Of a stretch of 46,737 nucleotides of DNA, positions 8,016 to 46,288 are shown in pieces. Each line of letters starts with the position of its first letter. The stretch's first letter is position 1. The position numbers and the translations under genes are program-made. The stretch lies in the IMG/VR virus record IMGVR_UViG_3300005512_000062, positions 1 through 46,737 of that record. One strand, written 5' to 3'. Source of the stretch: a virus. Its lineage: Duplodnaviria; Caudoviricetes. The notes under the pieces are model-generated. The model saw nothing but the letters and a program-made list of their open reading frames with translations, ran no database searches and was not told the origin of the DNA.

Positions 8016-9041
8016 ATGAGCGACGGCAAGTATGATCTAACATGGAAAAAGACCAGTGAACTTGCGGCCGGTGGTACTGCGGCGGTTGCTACCGATAGGT
8101 ATATACTACTTAAACAGACAGGACAGGGCGATCCAGTAACGCGTCCTCTTTCTGATATTTTAGGTGGCGGTAGTGCGGGGGTAACCGGGGCAACTGGACC
8201 AACTGGACCTACCGGGCCAACCGGACCACAAGGTACGCAGGGTATCCAAGGTACAGCTTCAACTGTAACTGGACCGACTGGACCAACCGGACCGACCGGA
8301 CCAACTGGACCCCAGGGAACTCAAGGTACAGCTTCAACTGTAACTGGGCCAACTGGGCCAACTGGACCGACTGGACCAACTGGACCCCAGGGAACTCAAG
8401 GTACAGCTTCAACTGTAACTGGACCAACTGGACCAACTGGACCCCAGGGAACTGCGGGTACGGCACAGACTGGACCAACCGGACCAACTGGACCAACTGG
8501 GCCACAAGGAAACCAGGGTAATATAGGTCCCACTGGACCAACTGGTGCGACTGGACTCCAGGGTACAGCTTCGACTGTAACCGGACCAACCGGACCAACT
8601 GGAGGAACTGGAGCAACAGGCGCCACTGGACCAACTGGGCCAACTGGACCTCAAGGTACGGCAGCAGTTGGTAACGCAGCTAGTGCGCAGGTCAGCGTTT
8701 CGTTGGCAGAGTTGAATGCAGGGAAGACTATTGTCGCGGCTTCGCCGGGGCAGCAGATCGTTGTAACCGATTTCGTGTTGGTTTGCAACGGTAATTTTGC
8801 CGGTTTGACTTCGTTGGAACTTGAGGACGCAAGTGCTACAGTTAATGTTTGTTCAATACTGCAAAGTCAGTTGGACAATGATGTAGTGATTACAAAGGAC
8901 ATAGACCACGCAAAGGTTATCCTGGGTGTGGGTATGGCTGAAGGTCTTACTGTCAGCGAAGCCTTGAAGATTACTAAAACTGGTGCAGCGGCAACCGGTG
9001 GTACGAGCATAACAGTAGTTGTAACGTACTTTTTGGTGTAA
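8016..9041 (+). CDS. Collagen-like (Gly-X-Thr) head fibre/decoration protein
   Basis: About 165 aa of GPT/GTQ repeats between a short N-terminal anchor and a beta-rich C-terminal domain. Directly after the capsid gene. Confidence 0.8.
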
Positions 9042-13282: not shown

Positions 13283-13283
13283 T

Positions 13284-13883
13284 ATGGCAGTAGCAAGTTT
13301 TTTTGGTAATCCTACAGGTAATATGGGGATAATAGCAAATCCTACAGGGTATGGATACGGCACAGCCCCTAAGAATACCGGACCTACTTTATCCCAGGCA
13401 TTACGTCCTGGAGCCACCACTAGAATAAGACCCACCTTTGGTGAGGAAGATCCTGGTGGGATAACTGGACAAGCATCGCCAACCATAGGGCATTATATGG
13501 GGGCTTTTGGCAGTATCCTTGGGGGCATAAGCAAATTTCAATCTGCTCAAGTTCAGGCAGACGAATATCAGTATCAGGGAAATTTAGCAGTAGCTGAAGC
13601 TTTTAGAGATGCTTCTATCATAAGGGAAGAGGGGCGTAGTTTCGCGGCTTCTCAATCTCTACAGTTTATTGGTTCAGGGGTAGAACTTACTGGATCAGCT
13701 TTGATAACAACGGCACAGACAATTAAATACGCAGAAACCGAAGCTACGGCAACGGAAGCAAAAGGTAAAGCAATCCAAAGAGCCGCGTATAAAAAAGCAG
13801 ATGTAGTCCGTAATGAGGGTCGCGCGGCATTAGCCGGGGGCATTATTAAGGGTGTAGCTTCTTTTGCAACGGTAGGAGTATAG
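13284..13883 (+). CDS. Internal virion (ejection) protein, gp14-like
   Basis: GAGGAG SD, Gly/Ala-rich helical protein with GSGVELTGS motif, located after the nozzle gene. Confidence 0.7.
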   Translation: MAVASFFGNPTGNMGIIANPTGYGYGTAPKNTGPTLSQALRPGATTRIRPTFGEEDPGGITGQASPTIGHYMGAFGSILGGISKFQSAQVQADEYQYQGNLAVAEAFRDASIIREEGRSFAASQSLQFIGSGVELTGSALITTAQTIKYAETEATATEAKGKAIQRAAYKKADVVRNEGRAALAGGIIKGVASFATVGV

Positions 13884-13890
13884 GGGAATT

Positions 13891-15705
13891 ATGGGAAAAA
13901 TAAATTCATATCAAAGGCAACAATTAGCTTCTAGCCGAACTCAAGTAGCTCCACAGAACGAAGCGGGGGCTATGGTCGCTAAAGATGTGGCTGACTTTGG
14001 TGCGGTTATGGTGAGGAGACAGGATGCATTAGATACTGCTGAAGCTACCAAGGCATATTACAAGTATGCCGCGGCTGACAGTATCCAGTCGGCAGAACTC
14101 CAATCAGAGTATATGAACAATCCTGATTTAGATCCTTTGACCTTTGGGGAGAAGTACGAAGCCCGGGCTAATACCCTAGCCCAGACTTTCGCTAAAGATT
14201 TACCGGGTCGTGTTCAGGCTAAGTTTGGTACTTTAGTTGAGAAGCAGAAGGCAGCACAGACGATTTCCAATAACAAATGGGTGGTCAACCAACAGAATAG
14301 AAATGCCCTTATAGGTTTCCAGGAACTTAATCAGGCTTCCACAGCTATAGCTGGGGAGTTAATGAATGCCGAGGACTATATACAATCAAGGGATACATAC
14401 CTTCAGGCAGCAGAGGGGTATAGGGCTGTAACTACACCTGCTTCCCACGCTAGTGCTACGAAATCAGCACTCAAGGCACAGGCAGCAGCCTATTGGAACA
14501 ATAATGTAGATTTTAGGAATGGGGGCAACCCTGCGGCATTTAAAGAGACCCTTAAAGATTCTGCTGTCCGTAAAGCACTAGAAGAAGATTTAGGCACCAA
14601 AGAATTCGCAAGGCTTGAGAAGAATTTAGACCAGATGGTTATAGCTATGGGGGCTTATCAGGGCTTTACTAAACTAATGACTGACGATAAGAACCTTGCT
14701 GAAAAGGTACAAAAGGTATACGATCCCAATAACAATTATGGACTTAAAGAGGTAGCTACCGAACTCCAGGAGGAGATTAATCGTAGAAACTATATGGTGA
14801 CTACCAATAAAGAAGGACAGAACACCGCAGCTATAGAGCAGACCAACGAGAACATAAAGAACTTGGAAGTCCTCAAGAGGATATCCATATATGCTAACGA
14901 TACCTCGTATGCATCAGATATAGACACCAAACGTCAGCTAACTGATGAGATTAAATTAGCTATGACACCTTATGGAAAGCAGAAGTTTAAGGATATTCTT
15001 GCCAAGCAGGAGAAAGTAGTTGGGAAGCAAACCGCGGAACAGGACGATAAATACCCCTGGTATGCCTATGCCAACCCCTATTTTCAAGTCAATAGAGTGG
15101 TAAGGGCGGGTAAAGCCGCATTGACCGGGGTGCCTTCTCCTATGAGGGCAGAAAGTGAAGAGAACATAAAAGCTTCAAAGACGGTCTCCCAGTATATGGA
15201 AGATATGTATACGATGAAAGGTAGGGTTCTAGCAGCAATAGAAGCTAAGACACTTACCTATGCTGATGGGTCGAAGATGATAGGTCAGCTTGGTACTTTA
15301 AGTACAGTTGAGAAATTTGACGCGCTACAGGCTACAGGAAAGAATTGGTTCACAGAAGGGTACGATGCTTTTAATGATTATTCCCGGGCAATTAGTCTGA
15401 ACACTGGCACGGTAGAAGGCAATAGACAGCTACGAGATGACATCCGTAACCAAATGATGGAGACCTTTTCAACAAGGATGGCTCTTTATGGAGACCAGCC
15501 AATCTCTTCTGATAAGATAGCCACCGAGATAGCGCAGATAAAAAACGAGAAGAATCAGCAATTGAACCCTGAGTTTATGGGTGTGAAGGTAGGAGACTAT
15601 GTGAATGTGAATGGAAAGTCTCTTGAGTTTATGGGCTTTAGTGGTAATACTGGCAGAGTGCAGGTAAAAGCCAAAGGTCTACAGAAGGAGTTAGATAACT
15701 TATAA
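13891..15705 (+). CDS. Internal virion (ejection) protein, gp15-like
   Basis: 604 aa, helical, MGKINSYQRQ start, podoviral gene order. Confidence 0.65.
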   Translation: MGKINSYQRQQLASSRTQVAPQNEAGAMVAKDVADFGAVMVRRQDALDTAEATKAYYKYAAADSIQSAELQSEYMNNPDLDPLTFGEKYEARANTLAQTFAKDLPGRVQAKFGTLVEKQKAAQTISNNKWVVNQQNRNALIGFQELNQASTAIAGELMNAEDYIQSRDTYLQAAEGYRAVTTPASHASATKSALKAQAAAYWNNNVDFRNGGNPAAFKETLKDSAVRKALEEDLGTKEFARLEKNLDQMVIAMGAYQGFTKLMTDDKNLAEKVQKVYDPNNNYGLKEVATELQEEINRRNYMVTTNKEGQNTAAIEQTNENIKNLEVLKRISIYANDTSYASDIDTKRQLTDEIKLAMTPYGKQKFKDILAKQEKVVGKQTAEQDDKYPWYAYANPYFQVNRVVRAGKAALTGVPSPMRAESEENIKASKTVSQYMEDMYTMKGRVLAAIEAKTLTYADGSKMIGQLGTLSTVEKFDALQATGKNWFTEGYDAFNDYSRAISLNTGTVEGNRQLRDDIRNQMMETFSTRMALYGDQPISSDKIATEIAQIKNEKNQQLNPEFMGVKVGDYVNVNGKSLEFMGFSGNTGRVQVKAKGLQKELDNL

Positions 15706-18700
15706 TGGCTATGGAAGAACAAAACACAGTAGACGAGGTAATGGATCTCGACACATATAAGTCGATGTATTCGACTAATAGTGTGGATAAGGATCATCTC
15801 TGGAAACAGGACGAGACCGGAACCATCCGGACTACGCCTAGCCGAGATACTGCTGTGTACAATGGAAATGCTTTCACCCAGTATCTTAATAGGACTGGGC
15901 AGGCTTTTGTGGGGATTTTCACAGGCATCCCAGGGGGCATAACAGCTATGAGTGGGGCGGCTGTCCGGGACAAAGGCATAGCTAAGACCGCGGTAGATAC
16001 GGGTGGGGCTTTTCTTTCGTTGGCTGCTCCTGGGCTATCAAGTTTTCTTGACACCTCTGGGATAGATGATAGAGCCGAGACTTTTATAGCGGAGAGGTTA
16101 GATGGATCTGTAGAAGCCCATAGGGAGAGATCAGAACGCATTGGCGAGAAGATGGTTAACTATGGTCTTTATATGGCCGAAGAAGGTAAGAAGATCGCAG
16201 CAGAGATGGAAGCAGCACAGCCCACTACCAATAAGGCATCACAGTTCCTAGGAGATGCGACTGGTTCTATATTGGCTACGATTGCTCTATATAAGATGGG
16301 TGGGGTTGGTCTAGCTACAGGAGTATTTAGTCTCTCCTCTGCGGCTGATGTAGGTGTAGACGCCCTTAAAGCGGGTAAAGACTTTGATACTTCCTTCCTA
16401 GCTGCGGCATTTACTGGTGTGGCTGTGGGTGGTCTTGAGAGTATGGGGCTTAATGCAGTTTTTGACAAGACAGCTAGAACGGGCATTAAAGCCACAGCTA
16501 TGCATATACTCAATGCTACTCTTACAGAAGCCACAACAGAAGCAGCACAGACGGCTGTAGAATTAGGAATGTCTAGGGTGGTTGGTGGATCGAAAGATGT
16601 GACCCTATTAGACGCTCTATCTCAGATGGCTTATGCAGGGGCAGTGGGTGCTTTTGCTGGTGGCACAATGGTGAGTGGGGTAACCCTTACGCAGAAAGCT
16701 AAAGCGATTTCCTTGTTACGATCCGAATTGGGGGTAAACCACGATACGGCTAATCGGATATATACTCAAGCCGAACAGGTAGCAGCCGAGCAGGTTCTTG
16801 CGGGTATGGGTGAAGATACCGGCTATGATGCCATACAGAATCGTAAGATCCAAAATATGAGAGACATTATCAAACTCTCAAGGGGTGAAGCAGGTGTTGA
16901 GAACGCAGACGCTAAAAGGATTCTTGAATCTTTAGATGTCCAGACACCAGGCGAAACTCTACTAAATGAGTTACGCGCCCAGGCTACAGCAGACATTAAT
17001 GCTGAGATAGAGGAAGGCAATATAAAAGGTAAGAAAGTTAAGGGGGCTAAAGCTGTAGAGAAGGCCGCTGAAATCACCGAGACATTAGAAGATCAGAAGG
17101 CAGAAGAGCCGGAAGAGTTTGTTCGTATAGAGCCTGAAGTTATTAATGATGTTAAGCCCATATTTAGGGAAGCTTTTGTGGGTAGGGTTAAAGAACTTAC
17201 TCGCGTTGCAAAGCAGGCTAAGAGTGAACTTATGAAGGCACTCAAGCTGCAGAGTCTTAAAGCTGGGAAGACAAACACCAAAGCCATAAACAATCTTATA
17301 AAAACTTATATAGACGCAACGACAGAACTTACTTATTTGAAAGAGAATCCTGGTGAAATCGTCTTTACCGGGGACAATCAGATCACCTTAAAGAATGCTG
17401 AAGTTCTTGGGCGAATAGCCGATAAACAAACCGCTTTGATACTTCGGAATGTACGAAAGAACTTTCTTCGTGGAAGACAGGCAACTCAGGCAGAGATGCA
17501 GTATATCAAAGGAGTTATCAAACAGTTGCTCAATAGACCTGGACTTTCCCAGTCTCAGAAGTTTGACCAGCTTGGTAGATGGCTCAACAAGATAACGACT
17601 CCTGAACAGTTGCAGAAGAAGTTCTTTGAATTAGAGATGAAGGTCAACGATATCATTCAGGATAATGTTACGACTACCTTTAAGAAATCCATAGATAGTG
17701 CTATCAATCTAATGAAGGGTAAGGGAGTGGGTACGAAGAAGAAGGTCAATCTTCCTCCCCAGGCACAGAAACTTGCCGATATATTTTTGAAGGCAATGAA
17801 CCAAGAAGACATTAACCCGGCGGTAGAGGTCAATCAGATCCACACACCAGAAGGATTTATGAGAACATTGGCTGCGCGTTTAGCTACCGAATCTAACCCA
17901 GATGGTTCTCCTCTTTCTGCAAGAGACTATATGAATATAGAGAGAACTCTTCGTGACTTTGTGGAGAACAAGACTCTTGAAGCCCAGAGGATTGCTAAGA
18001 CTAATAGAGCCTTCGTAGAGAAGACTCAGGAGAGAGTAGTTGAAAACTTAGACAAGACTAAGCAACTCAACGAGGAAGGGTATAGGAATCTTTGGGAAGG
18101 CATAATGAGCCAGTTAAGTCGTAGGTTCAACTATCAATCTCTCATAGGCTCCCTTGCTAAAGGAATGGGTGCTGAGACCGGCTCTTCAGTATTTGAAGCC
18201 GTGATGGACTTTGGCAAAGCCCATATGAAGAACGAGACCCTATATGCTCACTTCACGAGTCAATTTAACCTAGGGGCTATGAGGATTTTTGGTGTTAAGT
18301 CTACCCTTGAGTTAAGCAAGAAGTTTCTTAGGGACAACATAAACAACGACCAATCGTCTAATCCTGATGTAATCATATCCAAGGAGAATGCACAAGGGGG
18401 CTTGGAATCATTTTGGAGAGGATCTATCGCCCAGGCTAGAGAGAAGTATATGCTTTGGCTGAGTCCTGATGGACAGTCCATAATGAAAAAGCAGGGGTGG
18501 ACAGAAGGAGAGATTGAGAATCTAGTAGATAATATGACAGAACAGGACACAGAATTTGTGGCTATGCAGTTGAACCTCTACAATGATATATGGCCATTGA
18601 TAAACGAAACCCATAGGAAAACAGTGGGGTATGACCTAGGATATAGGGAAAGATATTCCCCAGTCTATAGGACAGGTATTGATTTTGGGTCTTCAAATAT

Positions 18701-20177
18701 GATCGATCAGCTTCTAGGTCGAGGACCCCTCTCGCCTGATATGCAGAATGTTACCTTCACGAAGGAACTCACCAAGAGTGAGAAGAGACTCAAAGATGTA
18801 GCAGACTTTGATAAGATGCGCCATTACATAAAGGACGCATCCTATTATGCAGCTTTCGCTGAGAAGGTAGCCCAGGTTCAGGATGTCCTAGGTAATAGCG
18901 CGGTACGAGAGAAGATAGAGCAGGTACGCGATAAAGACTTTTATGGAAGACTCAAGAAGTATGTAGATATCCTCGCCCAGGGTAAGAGATATGGGACAGG
19001 CAACCTCAATAGTGCTATGAACCACGCGGTCACCAATATGCAGAAGATGCTCTTGGCGGGTAAGATGGTTCTTTTTCCCAAGCAGTTGGTATCAGCTTTT
19101 GCTGCGCTTGAGGTAGCTAATGGAAAGACCTTTGCTAAAGCTATGTCAGAACTACCTAAAGCACTAAAGAGTGGTGAATTAAGTAAACTCTTGGAGCATC
19201 CCTACTTCGCCCATCGTACTATGAGAAGGGCTATATCGAGAGATATCGCGGACATCAATGCAGCTTTCGAGGGTGGTCAGATGACCGAGAAACGGCTAAA
19301 GAAGGCTGAACTAGATCTAACTTTGAACCACTACCTATTCCTTGGAACTCAATTAGGGGATATGGGTGGTGTCATTTTGAATGGTTGGGCTGTGTATAGT
19401 CAACACAAAGCTGATGGTAAGAGTGATACTGAAGCTGCTAATCTTGCAGTTCAGCATATAGATCGTACCCAGCAGTCAGCTAGGGTGACTGAACAGATAG
19501 GAATGTCGTTGGATCCTAACCCAATTGTGAGGGCATTCACGAGTTTTACCCACGCACCTATGCAATATGCGAGTATTTTAGTGCAGCAATTAGACACTAT
19601 AGGCACAGAAAGATTCAATGCTACGCAATTTGCTAGGACTTTTGCAACATTTTTTGTCCTCCTACCTATGCTATACTCCGCGGTGGGACGTGCATTTAAC
19701 TATAAAAAAGAGGATATGCCCCAATATTTAGCTGAGTTTGCTCTTGGACCCTTTGATGATATGCCCCTCACAGGGGGACTACTAAGGGTGTTGGCGTCCA
19801 GAGCGATCTTCAATGCATACAAAGCTACAATAGACGAGGATGCAAAACTTCCTTATAGTGCTAGATGGGATGCGGCGGGGACAGGGCTATTTGATTCTAT
19901 GGTCAAGAACATAGCTGATGTTGAGAGGGCTTTGACTAAAGAATATGAAGATGGGATAAAACTATCTGATTTCTTAAACATAACTACTCAATTGGCAGAA
20001 GCAACCGGTCCAGTTGGTGGCATATATTCAGGTGCTGTGAGGACAGTGAGTGGAGCAGCCCAAGGCATATCCCTAATGTCCGAAGAGAACGGGGAAGGCA
20101 CTACGGTCAATAGTGTTCGTAGATTATTAATGATTATGGGATACTCAGAGTATGCCACAAGACCAACGGAGGAATAA
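15705..20177 (+). CDS. Large internal virion (ejection) protein, gp16-like
   Basis: 1490 aa, helical, with hydrophobic Gly/Ala stretches and an EA.TEA.Q motif. Precedes the tail fibre gene. Confidence 0.7.
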   Translation: MAMEEQNTVDEVMDLDTYKSMYSTNSVDKDHLWKQDETGTIRTTPSRDTAVYNGNAFTQYLNRTGQAFVGIFTGIPGGITAMSGAAVRDKGIAKTAVDTGGAFLSLAAPGLSSFLDTSGIDDRAETFIAERLDGSVEAHRERSERIGEKMVNYGLYMAEEGKKIAAEMEAAQPTTNKASQFLGDATGSILATIALYKMGGVGLATGVFSLSSAADVGVDALKAGKDFDTSFLAAAFTGVAVGGLESMGLNAVFDKTARTGIKATAMHILNATLTEATTEAAQTAVELGMSRVVGGSKDVTLLDALSQMAYAGAVGAFAGGTMVSGVTLTQKAKAISLLRSELGVNHDTANRIYTQAEQVAAEQVLAGMGEDTGYDAIQNRKIQNMRDIIKLSRGEAGVENADAKRILESLDVQTPGETLLNELRAQATADINAEIEEGNIKGKKVKGAKAVEKAAEITETLEDQKAEEPEEFVRIEPEVINDVKPIFREAFVGRVKELTRVAKQAKSELMKALKLQSLKAGKTNTKAINNLIKTYIDATTELTYLKENPGEIVFTGDNQITLKNAEVLGRIADKQTALILRNVRKNFLRGRQATQAEMQYIKGVIKQLLNRPGLSQSQKFDQLGRWLNKITTPEQLQKKFFELEMKVNDIIQDNVTTTFKKSIDSAINLMKGKGVGTKKKVNLPPQAQKLADIFLKAMNQEDINPAVEVNQIHTPEGFMRTLAARLATESNPDGSPLSARDYMNIERTLRDFVENKTLEAQRIAKTNRAFVEKTQERVVENLDKTKQLNEEGYRNLWEGIMSQLSRRFNYQSLIGSLAKGMGAETGSSVFEAVMDFGKAHMKNETLYAHFTSQFNLGAMRIFGVKSTLELSKKFLRDNINNDQSSNPDVIISKENAQGGLESFWRGSIAQAREKYMLWLSPDGQSIMKKQGWTEGEIENLVDNMTEQDTEFVAMQLNLYNDIWPLINETHRKTVGYDLGYRERYSPVYRTGIDFGSSNMIDQLLGRGPLSPDMQNVTFTKELTKSEKRLKDVADFDKMRHYIKDASYYAAFAEKVAQVQDVLGNSAVREKIEQVRDKDFYGRLKKYVDILAQGKRYGTGNLNSAMNHAVTNMQKMLLAGKMVLFPKQLVSAFAALEVANGKTFAKAMSELPKALKSGELSKLLEHPYFAHRTMRRAISRDIADINAAFEGGQMTEKRLKKAELDLTLNHYLFLGTQLGDMGGVILNGWAVYSQHKADGKSDTEAANLAVQHIDRTQQSARVTEQIGMSLDPNPIVRAFTSFTHAPMQYASILVQQLDTIGTERFNATQFARTFATFFVLLPMLYSAVGRAFNYKKEDMPQYLAEFALGPFDDMPLTGGLLRVLASRAIFNAYKATIDEDAKLPYSARWDAAGTGLFDSMVKNIADVERALTKEYEDGIKLSDFLNITTQLAEATGPVGGIYSGAVRTVSGAAQGISLMSEENGEGTTVNSVRRLLMIMGYSEYATRPTEE

Positions 20178-21118
20178 TGACTATTGAAAACACATCAATT
20201 TTAACAAAGGTATCCGGGGATGATGCATCCACCACCTTTAGTTTTGACTACAAGATATACGCGGACACAGACATAGGGGTATACTTGGAGGATAAGACTA
20301 CTTCAGTTCAGACCGCCCAAGTCTTAGGGGTAGATTATAGTGTAACTAGAAGTCCTGACGAAGAAGGTGGATCAATAACTTTTCTAATAACTCCACCTAC
20401 ATCTAGTGACTGGGTAGTGACATATTCTAATATACCTTATACCCAGACCGTGGACATTCCAACTGATGGCAACCTTCGTGAGGAAGCCTTAGAGGGAGGT
20501 ATGGATAGGATCGAGAGACAGATCCAACAGGTCAATGGTAGATTTGATTCTGTGGTTGTTCTTCCGGCAGGGCAGACGGGGATATCTTTACCAGAAGGAT
20601 CAGGGGATGCTTACATAGGGTGGAACTCAACAGGAGATGCCCTAGAGAATAAGTCAGGCATAGGAACCACCGGGCCAACTGGGCCTAGTGGTGGACCAGC
20701 CGGGCCAACTGGACCAGCCGGACCAACTGGGGCTACTGGGGCAGCAGGGCTAGGGTCGTATACTACAGTTCAGGTTGTATTTGGTAATGGTACTGATGTC
20801 ATAGCAGCGGGGATATGGGGTGATGTTCAGGTACCTTTCGCGGGAACTATAACAGGGGTCACTCTTCTTGCAGACCAGGCAGCCACGATGGTGGTTGATA
20901 TATGGAAGGATACTTATGCTAACTTTCCACCTACAGTGGCTGATACAATTACCGCGGCGGCTAAACCTACACTTACCGCGGCTAACAAAAGCGTAGACAC
21001 TACCCTTACTGGGTGGACTACGGCAGTCGCAGATGGTGATGTTTTTAGGTTTAATGTGGATTCTAATGATGTAGCAGAACGCGTTACTTTAAGTTTAGAG
21101 ATAACGAGAAGTACCTAA
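20177..21118 (+). CDS. Tail fibre adaptor: T7 gp17-like N-terminal anchor, short collagen, C-terminal beta domain
   Basis: [10 protein letters not shown]...LGVDYSV...LEGGMDR..RQIQQ anchor, GPT repeats, and a C-terminal [13 protein letters not shown] domain. Confidence 0.85.
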
Positions 21119-21129
21119 TAGGAGGAATT

Positions 21130-21267
21130 ATGAGCGGTTATAGAGGTGGATATTCAAATGGGATACCAATAGCAACGGGTCCAACTGGACCAACAGGAAG
21201 CACTGGGGCGACAGGCGCCACCGGAGCGACAGGCGCCACCGGACCAACTGGACCAACTGGACCATAA
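21130..21267 (+). CDS. 45-aa mini-collagen peptide (not in ORF track)
   Basis: AGGAGG SD, ATG 21130. Reads [16 protein letters not shown](GXT)9GP, stop 21265-21267. Confidence 0.8.
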
Positions 21268-21721: not shown

Positions 21722-24007
21722 ATGGCTTATGCAGGCGGCGGATATGCGGGCGATGGGGTGACCGGTCCTACTGGTCCCCAAGGCGCTAGTGGTGCTACAG
21801 GTGCAACTGGTGCGCAAGGTACAGCAGCACAGTTGACTGGACCCACAGGTGCCACTGGATCCACGGGCGCAACCGGCGCCACGGGTCCTCAAGGCACACA
21901 AGGAACTCAAGGTATCCAGGGTACTCAAGGTATTCAGGGTACTCAAGGTATTCAGGGTACTCAAGGTATACAAGGAACTCAGGGGATTACTGGGCCTACT
22001 GGGCCAACTGGGCCACAAGGTACCCAGGGTACAGCTTCAACTGTTACCGGACCAACTGGACCAACAGGCGCAACTGGACCCCAGGGAACTCAAGGCACAG
22101 CCGGAGTGACAGGAGCAACAGGAGCCACTGGACCAACTGGACCCCAGGGTACAGCAGGACAGGCAGCAGGACAGCTATGGTATTTTTCAAGTGACGCTAC
22201 TGTTCCGGCAATAGGAGCCTACGAGGGACTACGAAGAGTACCTTCCCTTAACGTGGAAGATGATGATACTGTTGTAATAGGTAGTGGTGATGGGCAGACC
22301 CTTATGGGTTCTTATGCTACGGATGCTAATAACCCAGGGGTGGATGTTATCCCTGCGGGTCCGCAGAAGTTCCATATGCACCACTATGTAGATAGTGCTA
22401 CAGGAATAACCACCTTTACATATAAGGTGTATAAATATGAGTCAGATACGACAGAGACATTGCTATTTGAGGTGACAACTGTAGAGGTTGACGCTACCGC
22501 GGTGACTACTTATGAGACCACAGTGACCAATCCTACAGATGTCGTTCTCGATGTTACCGATAGAATTGTTGTCAAAGTATACGCACAGACAACCTCTGTA
22601 GCCAATAGAACTTGCCACTGGGTATATGAAGGAACTGTAAATGCGTCTAGTGTATTGACTACCCTTTATGTAGAAGGTCAGCAGGGGCCAACCGGACCGA
22701 CCGGCGCCACTGGAAGTACGGGAGCGACTGGAAGCACAGGCGCAACCGGAGCGACAGGGGCCACCGGACCAACTGGACCGACTGGACCTCAAGGTACTCA
22801 AGGTATCCAGGGAACCCAGGGCATACAGGGGACGCAGGGAATTACCGGGCCGACAGGGGCCACAGGCGCCACTGGTCCGCAAGGAACTCAAGGTACAGCG
22901 TCAACAGTGACCGGGCCTACTGGGCCAACAGGCGCCCAGGGAACTCAAGGAACTCAAGGTATACAAGGAACTCAAGGGATTACTGGGCCTACTGGGCCAA
23001 CAGGTGCGCAAGGAACTCAAGGTACAGCGTCTACAGTGACCGGGCCTACCGGACCGACTGGACCAACTGGACCCCAGGGTACGCAAGGTATACAGGGTAC
23101 TCAAGGGATTACTGGGCCAACTGGACCAACAGGCGCCCAGGGAACTAAAGGTGACCAAGGCACGGTGGGTGACACTGGGCCGACTGGACCAACCGGACCG
23201 ACTGGCGCCCAGGGAACCAAGGGCGATCAAGGCACGGTGGGTGACACCGGACCAACTGGGCCAACTGGACCAACAGGCGCCCAGGGAACTAAAGGTGACC
23301 AAGGAACTGTTGGGGATACTGGACCAACTGGACCAACAGGGGCAACCGGAGCGCAAGGAACTAAAGGTGACCAGGGTACAGTAGGAGATACTGGGCCAAC
23401 TGGACCAACAGGCGCCCAGGGAACCAAGGGCGATCAAGGAACTGTTGGGGATACTGGACCAACTGGACCAACCGGACCAACAGGCGCCCAGGGAACCAAA
23501 GGTGACCAAGGTACCCAGGGTACGGCGGGTGACACTGGACCAACTGGGCCAACTGGACCAACAGGTTCTCAGGGGACTAAAGGAGATCAAGGGACAGTAG
23601 GAGATACTGGACCAACTGGACCTACAGGAGGAACCGGACCAACTGGACCAGGGAACTCCAATATAGAGGTAGTCATAGGTAATGGTACCGATACGATAGC
23701 CACAGGTGTATGGGGCGATGTAGAGGTAGGCTATGCTTGTACTATCACTGGTGTGACTATGCTATGTGATCAGAGTTGTACAGCAACTATCGATATTTGG
23801 AAGGATACATATGCCAACTTCCCTCCAACTAATGCTGATAGCATCACAAGTGCAACACCTCCGGGTACCTCGGCAGCAACTAAAGATCAAGATACTACCT
23901 TGACGAGTTGGACTACAAGTATAAGTGCGGGGGATATATTAAGGTACAATGTGGATGCAAACGATAATGCAACGAGAATCACTTTGTCTCTAACAGTGAG
24001 CGTTTAA
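21722..24007 (+). CDS. Long collagen-like fibre protein (BclA-like Gly-X-Thr repeats)
   Basis: Two collagen blocks separated by a ~175 aa globular domain. C-terminal domain is paralogous to that of 20177..21118. Confidence 0.85.
23131..23650 (+). repeat. Seven imperfect tandem units encoding G(A/S)[13 protein letters not shown](GPT)n
   Basis: Visible directly in DNA and translation. Confidence 0.9.
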
Positions 24008-30305: not shown

Positions 30306-30577
30306 CACCACCCCTTTAGCAGGTGCATAATTAAATAACCCCAAAACAGTATCATTCCTATTATAACGGAACGCACCTGCCATTTCGGAGCCTTCGCTTT
30401 CCATATCCAAAACATTTTTGATATAGTATTCCCGGTAGTCAACTTGGCTATGAGTTCATACGCGCCAAGTAATGACCCCACACATACCCAAAATATAACC
30501 CACCACCATAGCCCAGCTACTGCAAAGGGTACCCCTAGGGTTATTAGAAACACTGCTAGAATCTTTACTGCGTCCAT
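30305..30577 (-). CDS. Small membrane protein
   Basis: Three hydrophobic segments and a TIS..FW motif. Confidence 0.7.
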   Translation of the reverse strand: MDAVKILAVFLITLGVPFAVAGLWWWVIFWVCVGSLLGAYELIAKLTTGNTISKMFWIWKAKAPKWQVRSVIIGMILFWGYLIMHLLKGW

Positions 30578-31788
30578 AACTTTCCTCCAATCGCTGCAAT
30601 CACCTTAGTTGTCACAGCATTACCTAAACATTTGTACCTCTGGGTATCACTTATCCCCTCTGTCCACCCATCCGGAAAGCCCTGAAGTCTCTCACATTCC
30701 GTAGGTGTAAGCCTACGAATCCTCTGCCCATCTGTCAACTTACATCCATTACGGGGTGCTGCGTTGTTGAAGGTAGCACGAACTGTCCCACAATTATCCT
30801 CCTTTCTTATACGACTATTGTAGTCATCATAGCACATCACTCCGTGTTGATCCTGCCCCGTAAGGGTGAAGGATGGCTCACCTTCTTCCTTTATTCTTCT
30901 TCCGTTTTGTCTTTTTTGTAATCGTCCGGGCGTAAGCACGGCACATCCCCGCCTATTTTTAAGGTTCGTGAGGTCTCTGCCTTCATTGGCTTCCTCTCTA
31001 TAAAGTGACTCTTCAAGATCCCTTGCGTCATCTTCTCCGATAGGAAATACTTTGGGTCTACCTGATCCTCTAGTATGTCCGATAATGAACACTCGCTCCC
31101 GGTTTTGAGGAATTCCAAAGAATTTAGTATTAAGTACCTGCCATTCGATATCATACCCAAGGTTGGCAAGGACTTTAAGTATGGTTTGGAAAGTTTGTCC
31201 AGAGTCGTGAGTAAGTAAGCCTTTGACGTTTTCGAGTAGAACACATTGGGGTCTGTGGTGGTCGAGAATCCTTGCGATCTCAAAAAAGAGAGTTCCCCTA
31301 GTGTCATCGAATCCCCTTCGGTAACCGGCAACTGAGAATGCTTGGCAAGGAAATCCTCCAACCAGGAGGTCATGGCTTGGTATGTCTGTGACTTCGATTT
31401 TTGTGATGTCTCCTTCATAGAGTTTGCTCCTTTCGTCCCATCCTCCAGCACCAAAGGCTTTTGATCCCCCCACCCCTGACTGGTCAATGCCGGACATAAT
31501 TTGTTTTTGATTAATTTCTTGTGTAATCTTTGATCCGAAGACTTGACTATGTATTTCATTGTACCCTCCGAAGTTCTTTCTATAGATGGCACTCGCGTAT
31601 TTATCCCACTCGTTGGCGAAGACGCAAGTAAAACCTTCGTGATCTTTCCGTGGTTCTGCCGGACTGTCGGTGCTATCCCCGTTGGGCAATACACATTGTG
31701 ACACTCGTGACCCTTTCCCATATTGAATAGAATTTTCAAGTCCATAACGGAACCCTCCTATGCCCGCGAATAGTTCAATAAACTTCAT
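30565..31788 (-). CDS. DNA (cytosine-5) methyltransferase
   Basis: Motifs I (ELFAGIGG), IV (GGFPCQAFS), VI (ENVKGL), VIII (PQNRERVF), IX (RRLTPTECERLQGFP) and X (LGNAV). Confidence 0.95.
   Translation of the reverse strand: MKFIELFAGIGGFRYGLENSIQYGKGSRVSQCVLPNGDSTDSPAEPRKDHEGFTCVFANEWDKYASAIYRKNFGGYNEIHSQVFGSKITQEINQKQIMSGIDQSGVGGSKAFGAGGWDERSKLYEGDITKIEVTDIPSHDLLVGGFPCQAFSVAGYRRGFDDTRGTLFFEIARILDHHRPQCVLLENVKGLLTHDSGQTFQTILKVLANLGYDIEWQVLNTKFFGIPQNRERVFIIGHTRGSGRPKVFPIGEDDARDLEESLYREEANEGRDLTNLKNRRGCAVLTPGRLQKRQNGRRIKEEGEPSFTLTGQDQHGVMCYDDYNSRIRKEDNCGTVRATFNNAAPRNGCKLTDGQRIRRLTPTECERLQGFPDGWTEGISDTQRYKCLGNAVTTKVIAAIGGKLWTQ
30891..31745 (-). CDS. Overprinted alternative-frame ORF inside the methyltransferase (EcoHK31I-beta-like)
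   Basis: 284 open codons in another frame, containing SLSDILEDQVDPKYFLSEK. Possible SD-led start at ATG 31559 (GGAGGgtacaATG). Confidence 0.65.
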   Translation of the reverse strand: MDLKILFNMGKGHECHNVYCPTGIAPTVRQNHGKITKVLLASSPTSGINTRVPSIERTSEGTMKYIVKSSDQRLHKKLIKNKLCPALTSQGWGDQKPLVLEDGTKGANSMKETSQKSKSQTYQAMTSWLEDFLAKHSQLPVTEGDSMTLGELSFLRSQGFSTTTDPNVFYSKTSKAYLLTTLDKLSKPYLKSLPTLGMISNGRYLILNSLEFLKTGSECSLSDILEDQVDPKYFLSEKMTQGILKSHFIERKPMKAETSRTLKIGGDVPCLRPDDYKKDKTEEE

Positions 31789-40269: not shown

Positions 40270-40402
40270 TTTGATTCACCTCCTTCTTGATTTTAAAGTT
40301 ATTTCGTCTACACCAATTATCAATTTGTTCTTTTAAGTCTCCCATAAGAGTCCTCCTGTTGCAATCACATCTAAATTCTTTCTTACACACATAGCACTGC
40401 AT
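40181..40402 (-). CDS. Small Cys-rich hypothetical protein
   Basis: TAATG-coupled start at 40402, MQCYVCKKEFRCDC. The 3' part overlaps the HTH gene. Confidence 0.5.
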   Translation of the reverse strand: MQCYVCKKEFRCDCNRRTLMGDLKEQIDNWCRRNNFKIKKEVNQNDARLPKHKASGRTSRSASGDNQPVLPSR

Positions 40403-41541
40403 TATTTTGTCCCATGTGCGTGGGCTGGGTTGCCATACCATTTCTCGCCTGCCGGGATGTCTTTGGTGACAACAGATCCTGCACCTACCAAAGCACCCTC
40501 TCCCACGACAACCCCAGGGAGAACAATCGAACCCATACCTATGACAGCACCTTTCTTAATGAGGATCTTGCCCCATTCCTTTTGTGATGAAGGTGGGTAC
40601 TTGTCGTTTGAGAATGTCACCTTTGGCGCGATAAAACAATCGTCCTCGATGGTCACTCCTTCGGGAATGAAAGTCATAGCACCAATTCTTACGTTATTTC
40701 CTATGATGACATTGTGTCCTATCTCACAGCCACCACCTATATTACATCCCTTGCCTATCTTCGCGGTCTTGTATATGTTGCAATTGCCCCATACTTTGGT
40801 GTTCCTTCCTATAGTATAAGCATCCTTTAGCAGTGGCGTGTCTACGCCTTGATCCAATAGGATCGCCATATCCTCGACGGTACAATGCCCACCTATAAAA
40901 TTATCGAAAGGCCAAAGTAGTGGTTGGATGAGTTTTAAACTATCTCCACCAAGTTTTTGAAGTCCCTGGGTCCTCGTATTCTCGAAATCTGTCACAGCTT
41001 TATGGTATGACACCCCAAATTTCTCACAAATAGCTTCCTGCTCCTTGGCAAATGCTATGTAAACACCATATCTTGATAATGCCAATAGCTTTGCGAGTTC
41101 GGTTGTCTTCGTATCCGGCGTGGTTTTGCACTCGATTCCAGCCTTAAAGAAATAGTTCGAGATCTCCGTGGCTGCATAGTGTTCATTACCATCGAAGGAC
41201 AAATACTTCACATATGCCCTCAATCCCTCTTCCATATTGGGATGTTTTCCTCTCACAGGTGAGTGAAAAGCCACTCCATCAAGCTTTGCTGTCGTGCCAA
41301 CCGGCACACTTGAGTGATTTACAACATATTTTGGGGTGCATATGCTCATATAATCGTTCACGATCTCAACAAAATCCTCACACCAGGGGATGCAAATGTG
41401 AAGAATGTCCACTTTTGGTAGCTTATCCTTATCTTCGCCACTCTTTGCATCATACCCATATACCTTCTTCTTGTACTTGTCCTTGAGTACATTATGCAAT
41501 GCACTCCCAATCTCACCTAACCCTACGACCATCGTTTTCAT
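40402..41541 (-). CDS. Nucleotide-sugar 6-dehydrogenase-like domain fused to hexapeptide-repeat acyltransferase
   Basis: VVGLGEIG Rossmann motif, ICIP, SSVPVGT, HSPVRG, TTELAKL and GGHC. Then left-handed beta-helix repeats, FIPEGVTIEDDCFIAP..TFSNDKYP, GAGSVVTKD and GNPA. Confidence 0.88.
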   Translation of the reverse strand: MKTMVVGLGEIGSALHNVLKDKYKKKVYGYDAKSGEDKDKLPKVDILHICIPWCEDFVEIVNDYMSICTPKYVVNHSSVPVGTTAKLDGVAFHSPVRGKHPNMEEGLRAYVKYLSFDGNEHYAATEISNYFFKAGIECKTTPDTKTTELAKLLALSRYGVYIAFAKEQEAICEKFGVSYHKAVTDFENTRTQGLQKLGGDSLKLIQPLLWPFDNFIGGHCTVEDMAILLDQGVDTPLLKDAYTIGRNTKVWGNCNIYKTAKIGKGCNIGGGCEIGHNVIIGNNVRIGAMTFIPEGVTIEDDCFIAPKVTFSNDKYPPSSQKEWGKILIKKGAVIGMGSIVLPGVVVGEGALVGAGSVVTKDIPAGEKWYGNPAHAHGTK

Positions 41542-42003: not shown

Positions 42004-42037
42004 AAATATACACTACCCAAGCCACTTTGTCAAATTT
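42004..42037 (-). promoter_or_regulatory. Sigma70-type promoter, conserved motif copy 3
   Basis: Minus strand TTGACA (42033-42028), 17 bp spacer, TATATT (42010-42005), with the same flanks as copies 1 and 2. Confidence 0.8.
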
Positions 42038-42255
42038 TATTTATATTGATCCTTTAATTTATCGATAGGATCAAGTTCAAACTCACGCCTTTCCTCGTTC
42101 ACCTCCTCCAGGGTCATTCGTTTGTGTTCCATCAAGCCATAGAATCCACAATCCAAGCAAGTACACGAAAAATTCATATGCTTGAGATCTTCTGACACCA
42201 TTAATTCTTCGCTGCCACACTTTGGGCATTTATCACTATAACTTGAGCCACTCAT
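42037..42255 (-). CDS. Zinc-ribbon microprotein
   Basis: CPKC...CLDC, with AAGGAGG SD. Confidence 0.75.
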   Translation of the reverse strand: MSGSSYSDKCPKCGSEELMVSEDLKHMNFSCTCLDCGFYGLMEHKRMTLEEVNEERREFELDPIDKLKDQYK

Positions 42256-42452
42256 TTTTCATCCTCCTTGTCTATTGACATTATTGTATATCCATCCACT
42301 CCTATGCCATCGAAGAGTCCTTGAATATAGAAATCAATCTCACTTTGTGTCTCATACTCAATCTCTTCGATGGTGGCATTCTCATTAATAGTGCCAAACT
42401 CCTCGTACTCTTTGACACTTTCCTCACCTATCATTATTTTAGCTTTCATCAT
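42252..42452 (-). CDS. Small highly acidic protein
   Basis: AAGGAGG SD. 18 D/E versus 5 K and no R in 66 aa. Confidence 0.75.
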   Translation of the reverse strand: MMKAKIMIGEESVKEYEEFGTINENATIEEIEYETQSEIDFYIQGLFDGIGVDGYTIMSIDKEDEK

Positions 42453-42675
42453 CCTCCTTGTCGATGAGTTCGAGACTCACCAATTTGCAGCCATTCTTTA
42501 ATTTCTTTTCGCCTAGGATCTTGACATCAAAATCCTTTTTCTTTTTCCTTTCTTCCCTTTTCTCTTTCTTTCTCAATTCTTTCATCCCCGGACAACAAGC
42601 ATTCGCGTCATCCCTATGGTCATAGTCTTGTCCACAATGACCACATATCCAATGAACTACTTTTTCGGCATCCAT
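42439..42675 (-). CDS. Small Cys-containing basic protein
   Basis: GGAGGTGA SD before ATG 42675. WICGHCG...DANACC followed by a Lys/Glu tract. Confidence 0.7.
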   Translation of the reverse strand: MDAEKVVHWICGHCGQDYDHRDDANACCPGMKELRKKEKREERKKKKDFDVKILGEKKLKNGCKLVSLELIDKEDDES

Positions 42676-42676
42676 A

Positions 42677-42991
42677 TTACTCACCTCCCTTCAAAGCTTT
42701 TTGCACCCATTCGACCACATCACTCGTCTTACCACCTATGTGCCAATCTCTCACATCCTCGACATCCACGATATCTTTCCAATCATAGATGGTAGCAACT
42801 CCACTTGGTGTGTTTATCACCCATTCACATCTTACCTTGAGGTCATCCCCAAAGCCATTAGGCTCACCAAATACCTCGACAAGCCTTTCATAAGACTCAT
42901 CGATTGAGCCTTTGAGACTCGTGCCATTGGCACTTGTCGATGGGATGTGGTTGACCATCCCTCTCACATCGATATTAATTATCTTTTCCAT
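42677..42991 (-). CDS. Conserved phage hypothetical protein
   Basis: AAGGAGG SD. TSLKG...Y..LVEVFGEP...KV..EW...ATIYDWK...WHIGG pattern familiar from uncharacterised phage proteins. Confidence 0.8.
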   Translation of the reverse strand: MEKIINIDVRGMVNHIPSTSANGTSLKGSIDESYERLVEVFGEPNGFGDDLKVRCEWVINTPSGVATIYDWKDIVDVEDVRDWHIGGKTSDVVEWVQKALKGGE

Positions 42992-43022
42992 ACTTCCTCC
43001 TTTTGTTATATTACTTCCTATA

Positions 43023-43223
43023 TTAGCACCACTCACCACAAGCACCATTCATTGGTATCTCGTAGGTATTGAACTCGACCATTAGTTCGTCACTATATGG
43101 ACGAGCCATTCCTTTGTTAAACTTTTTGATGGCAGCAATTGCCTTTTCTTTGGTTTCGCCAATGCCAAAGATCCTATCACTCGTGTCGATGGCAATAGCA
43201 AGTATCAACTTTTTCTTTTTCAT
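43023..43223 (-). CDS. Hypothetical early protein
   Basis: AAGGAGG SD, 66 aa, IFGIGETKEKA segment. Confidence 0.7.
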   Translation of the reverse strand: MKKKKLILAIAIDTSDRIFGIGETKEKAIAAIKKFNKGMARPYSDELMVEFNTYEIPMNGACGEWC

Positions 43224-43249
43224 AGCCATTCCTCCTTGTTTTATCATTT

Positions 43250-43312
43250 TTCACGCGATTTCCCAGGGATCCGGGAAATTCCAGGCTCTACAATCCATTG
43301 TAAGCCACGATC
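43250..43312 (-). ncRNA. Candidate structured intergenic RNA (two hairpins)
   Basis: Minus strand GGCU-UACAA-UGGA-UUGUA-G-AGCC and AUUUCCCGG-AUCC-CUGGGAAAU. The G-U pair forms only on the minus strand. Confidence 0.5.
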
Positions 43313-43322
43313 TCGTCCTTAC

Positions 43323-43487
43323 CTATACCTTGACCTTCACTCTTTTGTTCTTGTCGAGAAAGATCCTATAGCAATCACTACATACTATCTTGTCACCAAT
43401 TCGATACCTCATATTGAGGACTCGACCACATCCACAATATTCCTTCCTCTCGTGTGTGACTCTTCCACCATATGTAAACCTCTTCAC
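43323..43487 (-). CDS. 54-aa zinc-finger microprotein (not in ORF track)
   Basis: GGGAGGT SD, GTG start. MKRFTYGGRVTHERKEYCGCGRVLNMRYRIGDKIVCSDCYRIFLDKNKRVKVKV. Confidence 0.7.
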   Translation of the reverse strand: MKRFTYGGRVTHERKEYCGCGRVLNMRYRIGDKIVCSDCYRIFLDKNKRVKVKV

Positions 43488-43502
43488 TTCGACCACCTCC
43501 CT

Positions 43503-43570
43503 TGGTTATGGTGAGACTTTGGACTCACCTTGTGGTTTACATCCCTCTTACGAGGGATGCCATCACCATT
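43503..43570 (-). ncRNA. Repeated two-hairpin cis-RNA motif, copy A
   Basis: AAUGGUGAUG-GCAUCCCUC-GUAA-GAGGGAUGU-AAACCACAA-GGUGAG-UCCAAAGU-CUCACC-AUAACCAA. Covaries with copy B. Confidence 0.75.
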
Positions 43571-43869
43571 TAAAGTTCACTATAGAAGGAATGTCCAAAT
43601 GTCTCTCGACATTCCTTGCATAGCACATCCTTATCAAGTGAGCCATTAGGACTCCCACAATACTTGCACTTGTTACCTCTTGAGACATCGATTCCCTTGA
43701 TACGAGCCACGAATTCACGATAGTCTTCCATCTTATTAGGGATGATGCTCTTGCACTCATCACAATAATCTAGTCTCAAGTTCTTATTGCCTTTGACACT
43801 ATAATATTTGTTGCACTTGGTTAATTTGTCCTTGCTCAAACACACATCACACACTAATACTTTTGCCAT
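43570..43869 (-). CDS. Double zinc-finger small protein
   Basis: Four CxxC motifs, AAGGTGA SD before ATG 43869. Confidence 0.75.
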   Translation of the reverse strand: MAKVLVCDVCLSKDKLTKCNKYYSVKGNKNLRLDYCDECKSIIPNKMEDYREFVARIKGIDVSRGNKCKYCGSPNGSLDKDVLCKECRETFGHSFYSEL

Positions 43870-43870
43870 C

Positions 43871-44122
43871 TTACTCACCTTCCTTCTTGGGTTGATTCAT
43901 TATGTCCTCTTGGAGACTCGTGATATCCTCGAATATGTGTCCTTTCACATCTTCACCATTAGCTAGACGATGTCCATAATCCTTACCTTCCTCGTACTCG
44001 TTATAGTCTATGAGTCTTTGCAATGCATCCTTGCTTACAAGTACCCTTGGCTCTTCCTTGATACGATAAGCATCCCTTCTTTCCTCGATCTCCTTCATTT
44101 GTTCCTTGTCATAACCATCCAT
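43871..44122 (-). CDS. Acidic hypothetical early protein
   Basis: AAGGAGG SD before ATG 44122, 83 aa. Confidence 0.75.
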   Translation of the reverse strand: MDGYDKEQMKEIEERRDAYRIKEEPRVLVSKDALQRLIDYNEYEEGKDYGHRLANGEDVKGHIFEDITSLQEDIMNQPKKEGE

Positions 44123-44133
44123 TTTATCCTCCT

Positions 44134-44571
44134 TTATAGTAGTTCGTCCAAACACCACTCTTGGATAAGGCATAGAATAGCCTTACCAAGTTCGTCTCTA
44201 CCAAATTGATATTCACTTCTCTCTATGCAAATGGATATCCTATCCTCGTACAACTCAAGAAAACATCCAATGTCAAAATAGATAATGGTGATGTCTTCTT
44301 TTATCTCGTCAATATCCAATGCACTTATTTCCTCGATCCTATCCCTATCCTTCACGAACTCCATTTTACCTAATGCACCAAGGATATTATCATTCACGAT
44401 GTAATAATATTCCTTGCCACAATATGCACACCACACCTTGACCAAGTTCTCATTCCTTGATGTCGAACCTTGGTTTTCCATATGTGTCTCATTGCAATGA
44501 GGACATATGTGTGCATTAGCATCCTTGACTCTTGGTGTGGGATCGACTACTTTCCCATTAAGTCTTTCCAT
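44134..44571 (-). CDS. Zinc-ribbon plus acidic domain hypothetical protein
   Basis: GGGAGG SD. CPHC...CAYC, then an acidic C-terminal half. Confidence 0.75.
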   Translation of the reverse strand: MERLNGKVVDPTPRVKDANAHICPHCNETHMENQGSTSRNENLVKVWCAYCGKEYYYIVNDNILGALGKMEFVKDRDRIEEISALDIDEIKEDITIIYFDIGCFLELYEDRISICIERSEYQFGRDELGKAILCLIQEWCLDELL

Positions 44572-44586
44572 TTTAACCTCCCTTGT

Positions 44587-44660
44587 TTGGTTGTGTGGAG
44601 ACTTTGGACTCCACTCGTGGTTTACATCCCTTCCTATATAGAAGGGATGCCATCACCATT
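44587..44660 (-). ncRNA. Repeated two-hairpin cis-RNA motif, copy B
   Basis: AAUGGUGAUG-GCAUCCCUUC-UAUAUAG-GAAGGGAUGU-AAACCACGA-GUGGAG-UCCAAAGU-CUCCAC-ACAACCAA. Confidence 0.75.
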
Positions 44661-44892
44661 AGCATTCACTTGGAATCATTTTGAACTCATTCCACATCAC
44701 ATCGTCCATTTGTCTCGTGGTGATATTCTCGATGCTATATCCTTGACGATTGACACCATCAATCACGAGCCTTTCACACTCGTCAAGATCCTTGAAGTCA
44801 CCACACCTTGTGTAGCTATCCTTCAAGTCACAAGTTGCTATTGTCACTACATTGTTTTTCATAAAGTCAAATATCATTTGTTTAGCTACCAT
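44659..44892 (-). CDS. Hypothetical early protein
   Basis: Repeated initiation region GGTGATTGAGATG, ATG 44892. Confidence 0.7.
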   Translation of the reverse strand: MVAKQMIFDFMKNNVVTIATCDLKDSYTRCGDFKDLDECERLVIDGVNRQGYSIENITTRQMDDVMWNEFKMIPSEC

Positions 44893-44909
44893 CTCAATCA
44901 CCATCCTTT

Positions 44910-45131
44910 TTAGTTGTACATCAACTTGACAAGTTTATCTCCAACAACTCTATTTATCTCTTGGTATGCCATCTCCCAAATATCGTACCATTCACTTGGG
45001 ATATCTTTTCTCATACGATTCGTGAACTCTTGGTGGTTGAACATATAGAATTCACTTTTGGTGATATCATAGTTCTTTTGCACCATAGCTTGTAACTTTT
45101 TGATTTTAATTTTACCTATTGACCTTGCCAT
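44910..45131 (-). CDS. Hypothetical early protein
   Basis: AAGGAAGGTGAT SD, 73 aa. Confidence 0.75.
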   Translation of the reverse strand: MARSIGKIKIKKLQAMVQKNYDITKSEFYMFNHQEFTNRMRKDIPSEWYDIWEMAYQEINRVVGDKLVKLMYN

Positions 45132-45147
45132 TTTACATCACCTTCCT

Positions 45148-45324
45148 TTATTTAAAATATACTTTGCCTATTGTATTGCCATTTATGTCACTTAAAAACT
45201 CACTAGCATTATTGTCATTCTCAATCTCATTAGCTAGTTTTTTTAAGATCCTAGCTATTTCACTTGTGTTATGCATTGCATCATTTAGCAATGACATTTT
45301 TATTACCATCTCTTTAGCTACCAT
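45148..45324 (-). CDS. Conserved small phage hypothetical protein
   Basis: EIARILKKLA...LSDINGNTIG pattern common in phage early genes, ATG 45324. Confidence 0.75.
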   Translation of the reverse strand: MVAKEMVIKMSLLNDAMHNTSEIARILKKLANEIENDNNASEFLSDINGNTIGKVYFK

Positions 45325-45339
45325 CTCAATCACCTTCCT

Positions 45340-45600
45340 TTACATTACCTTGTCATTAATTAATTTCATTGCCCAATGTATACCATAACTATCTCCACCA
45401 AGTCTTATCAAGCCTTGAGCCATCCCTAGCATAAAAGCCTTGTCATTAGCATAAGGTTTTAAAACTTGAACCCACTTGGCATAATTACCTTTAGTAGTTT
45501 TTATGCCATTCTCTATTGACTCGACAAGCTTTTTACAATCCCCATCACTAGCAATTGCACTTGCTACCTTCTCCAAATAGTCACTTAATTTTTTGTCCAT
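45340..45600 (-). CDS. Hypothetical early protein
   Basis: AAGGAAGGTGAT SD before ATG 45600. Confidence 0.75.
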   Translation of the reverse strand: MDKKLSDYLEKVASAIASDGDCKKLVESIENGIKTTKGNYAKWVQVLKPYANDKAFMLGMAQGLIRLGGDSYGIHWAMKLINDKVM

Positions 45601-45618
45601 CTCAATCACCTTCCTTTT

Positions 45619-46248: not shown

Positions 46249-46288
46249 AGTATAATGATATATTAACATATGTCAAGGAAAGTGTCAA
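46249..46288 (-). promoter_or_regulatory. Tandem early sigma70-type promoters
   Basis: TTGACA (46288-46283), 17 bp, TAATAT; and TTGACA (46276-46271), 16 bp, TATACT. Both upstream of the first early gene. Confidence 0.7.

Follow-up and report, generated by a model that had tools for sequence, protein, structure and literature searches.

The 46,737-nt window, a complete phage record with a terminal direct repeat of 69 nt, carries on its minus strand two copies of an RNA element that are almost certainly twister ribozymes of type P5, as judged from their sequence and from the covariation of their relatives. They represent a known ribozyme class in a short-stem form, and form a variant of it because stem P2 has three base pairs instead of four. 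Both copies very probably process the early polycistronic mRNA actively, with predicted cuts right after two stop codons.

Identity and anatomy of the two copies

The two repeats (44660-44587 and 43570-43503, minus strand) contain all three sequence blocks by which a preliminary description of this DNA had defined them, and these blocks of 18, 15, and 14 nt each occur exactly twice in the window. The copies are 80% identical over 85 nt by blastn (E 1e-15). No third copy was found in the window by blastn, and an unfiltered covariance-model search of the window, with a model built from the two copies, returned only the same two. The two hairpins described for each copy were reproduced by folding, with z = -3.3 for each minus-strand copy. 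Folding energy only partly selects the strand, as plus-strand z values were -3.2 and -1.9; the proposed preference for the minus strand is settled instead by gene orientation and by the Rfam match. As described, each copy spans the interval from a stop codon to the next Shine-Dalgarno (SD) sequence, with TAA (44659 in copy A, 43570 in copy B) ending 1 and 2 nt, respectively, before the first stem, and GGGAGG beginning 12 nt (copy A) or 8 nt (copy B) after the last.

When positions 43400-44760 were scanned with Rfam, copy B matched Twister-P5 (RF02684) with 47.5 bits (E 1.9e-08, 43512-43567) and copy A with 42.2 bits (E 4.4e-07, 44597-44657). Both scores exceed the gathering threshold of 37.6 bits, both alignments cover model positions 1-58, and P5 was the best match within clan CL00120 for both copies, so that the element, which the preliminary description had left without a recognised family, falls into a known one. 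Rfam scans of the whole window, in gathering and E-value modes, missed both copies, and a 6.5-kb scan recovered copy B alone, indicating filter loss rather than absence. As the Rfam filters drop above-threshold twisters in 47-kb scans, ribozyme counts in phage annotations are probably low.

According to the accessible text of PMC5408937, the twister class is marked by stems P1, P2 (four pairs in the consensus), and P4, by the pseudoknots T1 (three Watson-Crick pairs plus an A/A) and T2, by an extra G-C and U/A on P4, by a catalytic G, and by the A of the U-A cleavage site. All of these features were found in both copies (Table 1) except the four-pair P2, in which one pair is deleted in both Rfam alignments. 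The essential stems P1, P2, and P4 fold in both copies, and the catalytic G and the A that follows the scissile bond (U/AA) are present as G44654/A44623 and G43564/A43538. The elements are arranged as a circular permutation with its ends between P4 and P2. T1 is formed by UGG with CCA and T2 by AC with GU; relative to the Rfam consensus, both carry compensatory changes. The copies share with RF02684 the element order, the GA of L1 and the UAA, the 8-nt L4, the P4-extending G-C and U/A, both pseudoknots, and a location near phage genes. They differ from it in P2 (four pairs in the model, three here), in T1 (GG/CC in the model, UG/CA here), and in T2 (GC/GC in the model, AC/GU here); they lack P3, and a P5 stem was not seen either.

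Both pseudoknots had been overlooked in the preliminary description, and the G-U pair that was taken to close the first hairpin is probably not formed in the active fold. Its G pairs with a loop C in T1 (68 of 69 rows of the family alignment paired; G-C in 66, A-U in 2), and its U directly precedes the predicted cut. The idea of a structured RNA with compensatory changes was borne out by the Rfam match together with pseudoknot covariation. Among the functions offered for it, that of a processing site agrees with the match to a self-cleaving ribozyme class.

Table 1. Positions of the two twister copies, their elements, and neighbouring features (window numbering unless a contig is named)
Feature	Position	Strand	Remarks
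Two overlapping sigma70-like promoter matches	46249..46288	-	10 and 11 of 12; consensus match only; at the head of the leftward operon, from which both ribozymes would be transcribed
Small gene upstream of copy A	44659..44904	-	81 aa; no PHROG/Pfam family; TAA ends 1 nt before P2
Twister copy A, type P5	44595..44657	-	RF02684 match; pairings from family alignment
Copy A P2	44657-44655/44621-44619	-	3 bp
Copy A general-base G	44654	-	
Copy A T1	44652-44650 with L4	-	
Copy A P1 hairpin	44649-44625	-	
Copy A predicted cleavage	U44624/A44623	-	
Copy A T2	44618-44617 with L4 3' end	-	
Copy A P4 and L4	P4 44614-44609/44600-44595; L4 44608-44601	-	
Leader after copy A	44569..44594	-	A/C-rich linker with AACCA; SD GGGAGG 44582-44577; ATG 44571
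Gene downstream of copy A	44134..44571	-	145 aa; Cys-X-X-Cys motifs; weak match to phrog_6504 (function unknown)
Middle gene of the three-gene block between the ribozymes	43871..44122	-	83 aa; unknown
Small gene upstream of copy B	43570..43869	-	about 99 aa; Cys-rich; no family; TAA ends 2 nt before P2
Twister copy B, type P5	43510..43567	-	RF02684 match; pairings from family alignment
Copy B P2	43567-43565/43536-43534	-	3 bp
Copy B general-base G	43564	-	
Copy B T1	43562-43560	-	
Copy B P1 hairpin	43559-43540	-	
Copy B predicted cleavage	U43539/A43538	-	
Copy B T2	43533-43532	-	
Copy B P4 and L4	P4 43529-43524/43515-43510; L4 43523-43516	-	
Leader after copy B	43485..43509	-	linker with AACCA; SD GGGAGGT 43501-43495; GTG 43487
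Gene downstream of copy B	43323..43487	-	54 aa; Cys-rich; unknown
Type-II hammerheads of relative G002 (two by Rfam, two by eye)	L440 3597-3663, 4041-4104, about 4640-4730, 5286-5345		early-gene spacers

Family survey and position between genes

An exact pattern of the first stem was found in none of the viral contigs searched, and blastn against GenBank phages gave one chance-level hit only. A pattern of the exact twister form returned 47 viral loci, 36 of them structured, and a looser pattern, with a T1 mismatch allowed and P2 left free, returned 121 loci drawn from 11 of the 64 parts of the viral collection. With a structured core in the looser scan defined as P1 of at least five pairs and P4 of at least four, the matches divided into 42 distinct structured cores and 76 others. 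T1 was Watson-Crick in 41/42 of the structured cores vs. 24/76 of the unstructured matches, and a full three-pair P2 was present in 35/42 vs. 2/76, respectively.

An alignment of 69 three-pair cores was built from the two copies of the window and 67 cores of middling length out of 84 one-per-locus cores; one row that ran off its contig was left out, and five rows are shifted by one column near T1. The G and A of L1, the UAA, and the G/U/A/A/G/C positions of P4/L4 were invariant in all 69, as were both A of the A/A adjacent to T1. Overall, 96.3% of cells were paired compared to 61.2% in shuffles (P1 92.6%, P2 97.1%, P4 98.2%, T1 98.1%, T2 100%), percentages that are inflated, since most sequences came from patterns with complementary pseudoknots and were then stem-filtered. 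Two-sided changes occurred at all three pairs of T1, and T2 was A-U in 38/69 rows, G-C in 31/69, and unpaired in none, as selected by the pattern. P1 reached at least 7 bp in 157 of 179 family members; it is given as dispensable for catalysis in the accessible text of PMC5408937. Two metagenome contigs (L433, L434) are 99.97% identical to the window and added no covariation. Matches in the genome collection were structured at 8 of 111 loci, one of which (L293) was doubtful and was dropped, so no host was inferred.

The rightward arm of the genome encodes the terminase, a head-tail adaptor, and the major head and tail proteins, and the leftward arm a DNA polymerase, a gp2.5-like single-stranded DNA-binding protein, an exonuclease, helicases, and a primase-helicase. 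Both repeats are located in the initial portion of the leftward arm, among consecutive small genes of which most have no family. Between the promoter matches (Table 1) and position 43503, no minus-strand terminator-like sites were listed.

The surroundings of the ribozyme were surveyed in 179 distinct cores (180 minus one doubtful), and the resulting counts are not independent, as many cores come from the same contigs. A stop codon lay -2 to +3 nt from P2 in 101/179 members (opposite-strand control, 13/170), with -1 as the commonest offset (39 cases). An open frame of at least 40 codons ended nearby in 158/179, and an SD with a start codon followed within 60 nt downstream in 164/173. The leader from the cut to the start codon had a family median of 51 nt, with 52 and 51 nt for the window copies. 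On one metagenome contig (L435, 228-2267), five twisters with a three-pair P2 lie within 2.6 kb between successive small genes; four of them start no more than 2 nt from a stop codon, and T1 is UG/CA in one and GG/CC in four.

Several other features of the genome were observed. An SD-plus-gene-start module that opens three small early genes is repeated at 44872-44909, 45304-45341, and 45580-45617 (minus strand), with 89 and 66% identity of the further copies to the first and a partial fourth near 45148; it may mark cassette boundaries. In both twister copies, an AUG overlaps or follows the upstream stop codon (44659 and 43569, minus strand). The AUG of copy B starts a frame of 10 codons that stops at the cleavage-site UAA, and that of copy A a 28-codon frame which, read by eye, terminates immediately ahead of the next start; both lack an SD and may be due to chance. 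At 30565-31788 and 30891-31745 (minus strand), long overlapping frames of 407 and 284 aa belong to one gene, whose start resembles a cytosine methyltransferase; an SD-like site accompanies each frame. Collagen-like Gly-X-Y repeats occur in the genes at 8016-9041, 20177-21267, and 21722-24007, one of which directly follows the major head gene.

Predicted processing of the early mRNA

The two predicted scissile bonds, U44624/A44623 and U43539/A43538, would be cleaved by general acid-base catalysis by G and A, as in other members of the class, which would leave 2',3'-cyclic-phosphate and 5'-OH ends. In E. coli-type hosts, RNA with a 5'-OH end is resistant to decay that depends on a 5'-monophosphate. 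From the anatomy of the copies, the upstream piece is expected to end in a P1 hairpin of 8–10 bp and the downstream piece to begin approximately 51 nt before the start codon, with 9 nt separating its 5' end from the P4 hairpin. The two cuts would divide the early transcript into three RNAs, of which the central one carries three genes. In the P5 permutation, no helix other than P2 and T1 holds the products together, so that a shorter P2 would ease product release. The purpose may lie in separately stabilised or separately tuned messages for the small early genes. This hypothesis is already in print in the available text of PMC6765202, which treats polycistron processing by ribozymes near phage genes as a suggestion and also gives mRNA decay as the consequence of glmS cleavage; whether 5'-OH ends are stabilising or destabilising depends on the host.

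The abutment of stop codon and ribozyme could also reflect plain genome compaction. Engineered ribozyme insulators, e.g., RiboJ, combine self-cleavage with a subsequent hairpin. In the same manner, cleavage and hairpin would here give the downstream gene a defined 5' end before its ribosome-binding site; the arrangement differs from RiboJ in being natural, in using a twister rather than a hammerhead, and in lying between genes rather than behind a promoter. The copies offer compact natural test units of stop codon, ribozyme, and SD.

The position of the stop codon would also suit a translation-coupled switch, in which the terminating ribosome covers P2 and the catalytic G and delays cleavage, after which the new 5' end pairs with the 3' end of the SD and tunes the next gene. 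We consider this unlikely, even if several observations agree with it. Besides the stop codons that abut or overlap P2, most often at offset -1, the SD end of the leader can pair with the post-cleavage 5' end over 4 bp in copy A (GGUU) and 5 bp in copy B (GUGGU), lengths that no other leader among 26 leftward ones of this phage attains. Folding of the 3' products, in which pseudoknots are ignored, predicts the same pairing. Among 84 clustered members, the linker has a strand capable of pairing with the new 5' end over 4 bp or more in 17, compared to 6.6 expected, a number reached in 0 of 400 permutations. However, any optimal GGAGGU SD supplies the ACC/GGU core of this pairing by itself, and of the 31 members with the P2 sequence of the window copies only these two, probably of shared origin, show it. 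Compaction accounts equally well for where the stop codon lies. A related suggestion of the preliminary description, that AACCA tracts compete for the 5' strand of P2, gained no support for the downstream tract across the family: it occurred in 46/174 members vs. 48.1 expected, and in 14/84 vs. 17.5 after clustering.

For processing itself as the function, related phages are informative. A related major head protein was found at 33 viral loci, and 10 of these records, four of them complete, were searched. With a model of our own and a positive control included, twisters were found in 0/10 records, also when the search was repeated on the four genomes; the Rfam twister model gave none above its cut-off in the relatives, and Pistol ribozymes were found in 0/5. 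One complete relative (G002; capsid 89% identical) carries two type-II hammerheads (RF02276) by Rfam, at 52.7 bits and, just below the cut-off of 37, at 36.8 bits, and two more spacers with a hammerhead core recognised by eye, with long insertions or a CUGAAGA core. Each of the four starts at or within approximately 10 nt of a stop codon and precedes an SD. A second relative (G001, contig L436) has one type-II hammerhead at 16047-16116 that likewise starts at a stop codon; its 26.8 bits are below the cut-off, and a second search did not find it. No type-II hammerhead is present in the window.

Type-II hammerheads have the same chemistry and product ends as twisters. Those of G002 and G001, whose capsids are 89–92% identical to that of the window, share with the window's copies the start at a stop codon, the end before an SD, and the small-gene region, but have an unrelated fold and active site. 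As two of the four complete related phages carry them in the same kind of spacer, cleavage itself is pointed to as the selected job, and one ribozyme class is naturally exchanged for another among these related phages. Occurrence of unrelated ribozyme classes in such shared places was the basis of their discovery, as stated in the accessible portions of PMC6765202, PMC10085705, and PMC8782182. The function is not universal in the phage group, as the two other complete relatives (G003, G004) showed no ribozyme above a cut-off in the searches run. Two further observations were made in these genomes. In G001, the early region (10900-17500, minus strand) has a tRNA at 13680-13751 and four spacers that share a TA(A)GCCC-containing motif, which is not a Pistol match. 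The gene at 40402-41541 (minus strand) of the window is a fusion of a nucleotide-sugar-dehydrogenase-like part (weak Pfam match) with a hexapeptide-repeat acyltransferase domain, and the fusion is common to G002 with 79% identity.

The same comparison bears on whether the repeats act primarily at the DNA level, as recombination sites for the shuffling or deletion of small-gene cassettes, with any cleavage as a secondary property. The copies, so much alike, flank a three-gene block, none of the 13 small genes at 42037-45609 has a match in the four complete relatives, and gene-ribozyme arrays exist, as on L435. Recombination as the main role is nevertheless very unlikely: catalytic positions and base pairs are conserved while the stem sequences diverge, which lowers DNA identity, and comparable positions in the relatives are occupied by an unrelated class of ribozyme.

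The three-pair P2 and remaining alternatives

In matched scans with consensus pseudoknots, 72 distinct cores with a three-pair P2 were found (59/69 loci structured) compared to 12 with a four-pair P2 (14/38 loci structured), and the three-pair P2 is the commoner form in the phage contigs scanned. A P2 length once thought fixed is thus three pairs in most of the phage copies found here. With a four-pair P2 and an AC/GU T2, there were 6 cores (7/13 loci structured); a tie between the short P2 and the AC/GU T2 was rejected, as all four P2/T2 combinations occur. Rfam scores were determined for 10 of the 59 three-pair and 10 of the 14 four-pair structured loci, and ranged from 45.2 to 62.5 bits (mean 55.0) for the natural three-pair copies and from 44.4 to 68.0 bits (mean 59.0) for the four-pair copies. 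The small gap between them suggests that the Rfam seed already holds short-P2 forms. In the open literature searched, we found no description of a type-P5 form with a 3-bp P2, and the accessible text of PMC6154101 describes none; the chances that such sequences are already contained in the founding papers or the Rfam seed appear about equal either way.

A more far-reaching proposal, which we regard as possible but doubtful in its entirety, would make the three-pair-P2 type-P5 twister the main, undescribed phage form, adapted to the processing of operons. Rapid release of the products would be due to the short P2 and to a competing strand downstream, the long P1 would cap the upstream mRNA, and the overlap with the stop codon would couple cleavage to translation; with hammerheads filling the same slot in sister phages, the whole would be a class-independent mRNA-dicing device.

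Conversely, the shortened P2 could mark slow or dead ribozyme relics. One of the four consensus pairs is indeed absent, and PMC5408937, in its accessible text, reports the suggestion that any addition to or deletion from P2 might disrupt the active site. This interpretation is highly improbable: the matched scans yielded 72 cores of the 3-bp form against 12 of the 4-bp form, and two-sided changes occur at all three pairs of P2. Moreover, P2 deletions were tolerated in CHiTA, where P2 length and deletions had no effect on cleavage, in type-P1 constructs only, and approximately 94% of the natural twisters tested were active (McKinley et al., PMC11662667, accessible text).

HK022 put sites are promoter-proximal. 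A put-like antitermination RNA or a protein-binding site, both raised in the preliminary description and suggested by two adjacent hairpins in an early operon, has next to no probability, since the twister model accounts for every conserved base and the strong promoter-like sites are approximately 1.6 and 2.7 kb upstream of the copies. An intrinsic terminator was rejected as well, with no minus-strand hairpin plus U-tract site at either copy and only the plus-strand complement of P4 at 43510-43529 flagged.

Within the family, six loci (L163, L164, L186, L187, L206, and L221) form a clade with P2 GAC/GUC and several copies per contig, characterised by long P1 hairpins with a palindromic GTTTAAAC-type centre and by linkers that repeat CACT.
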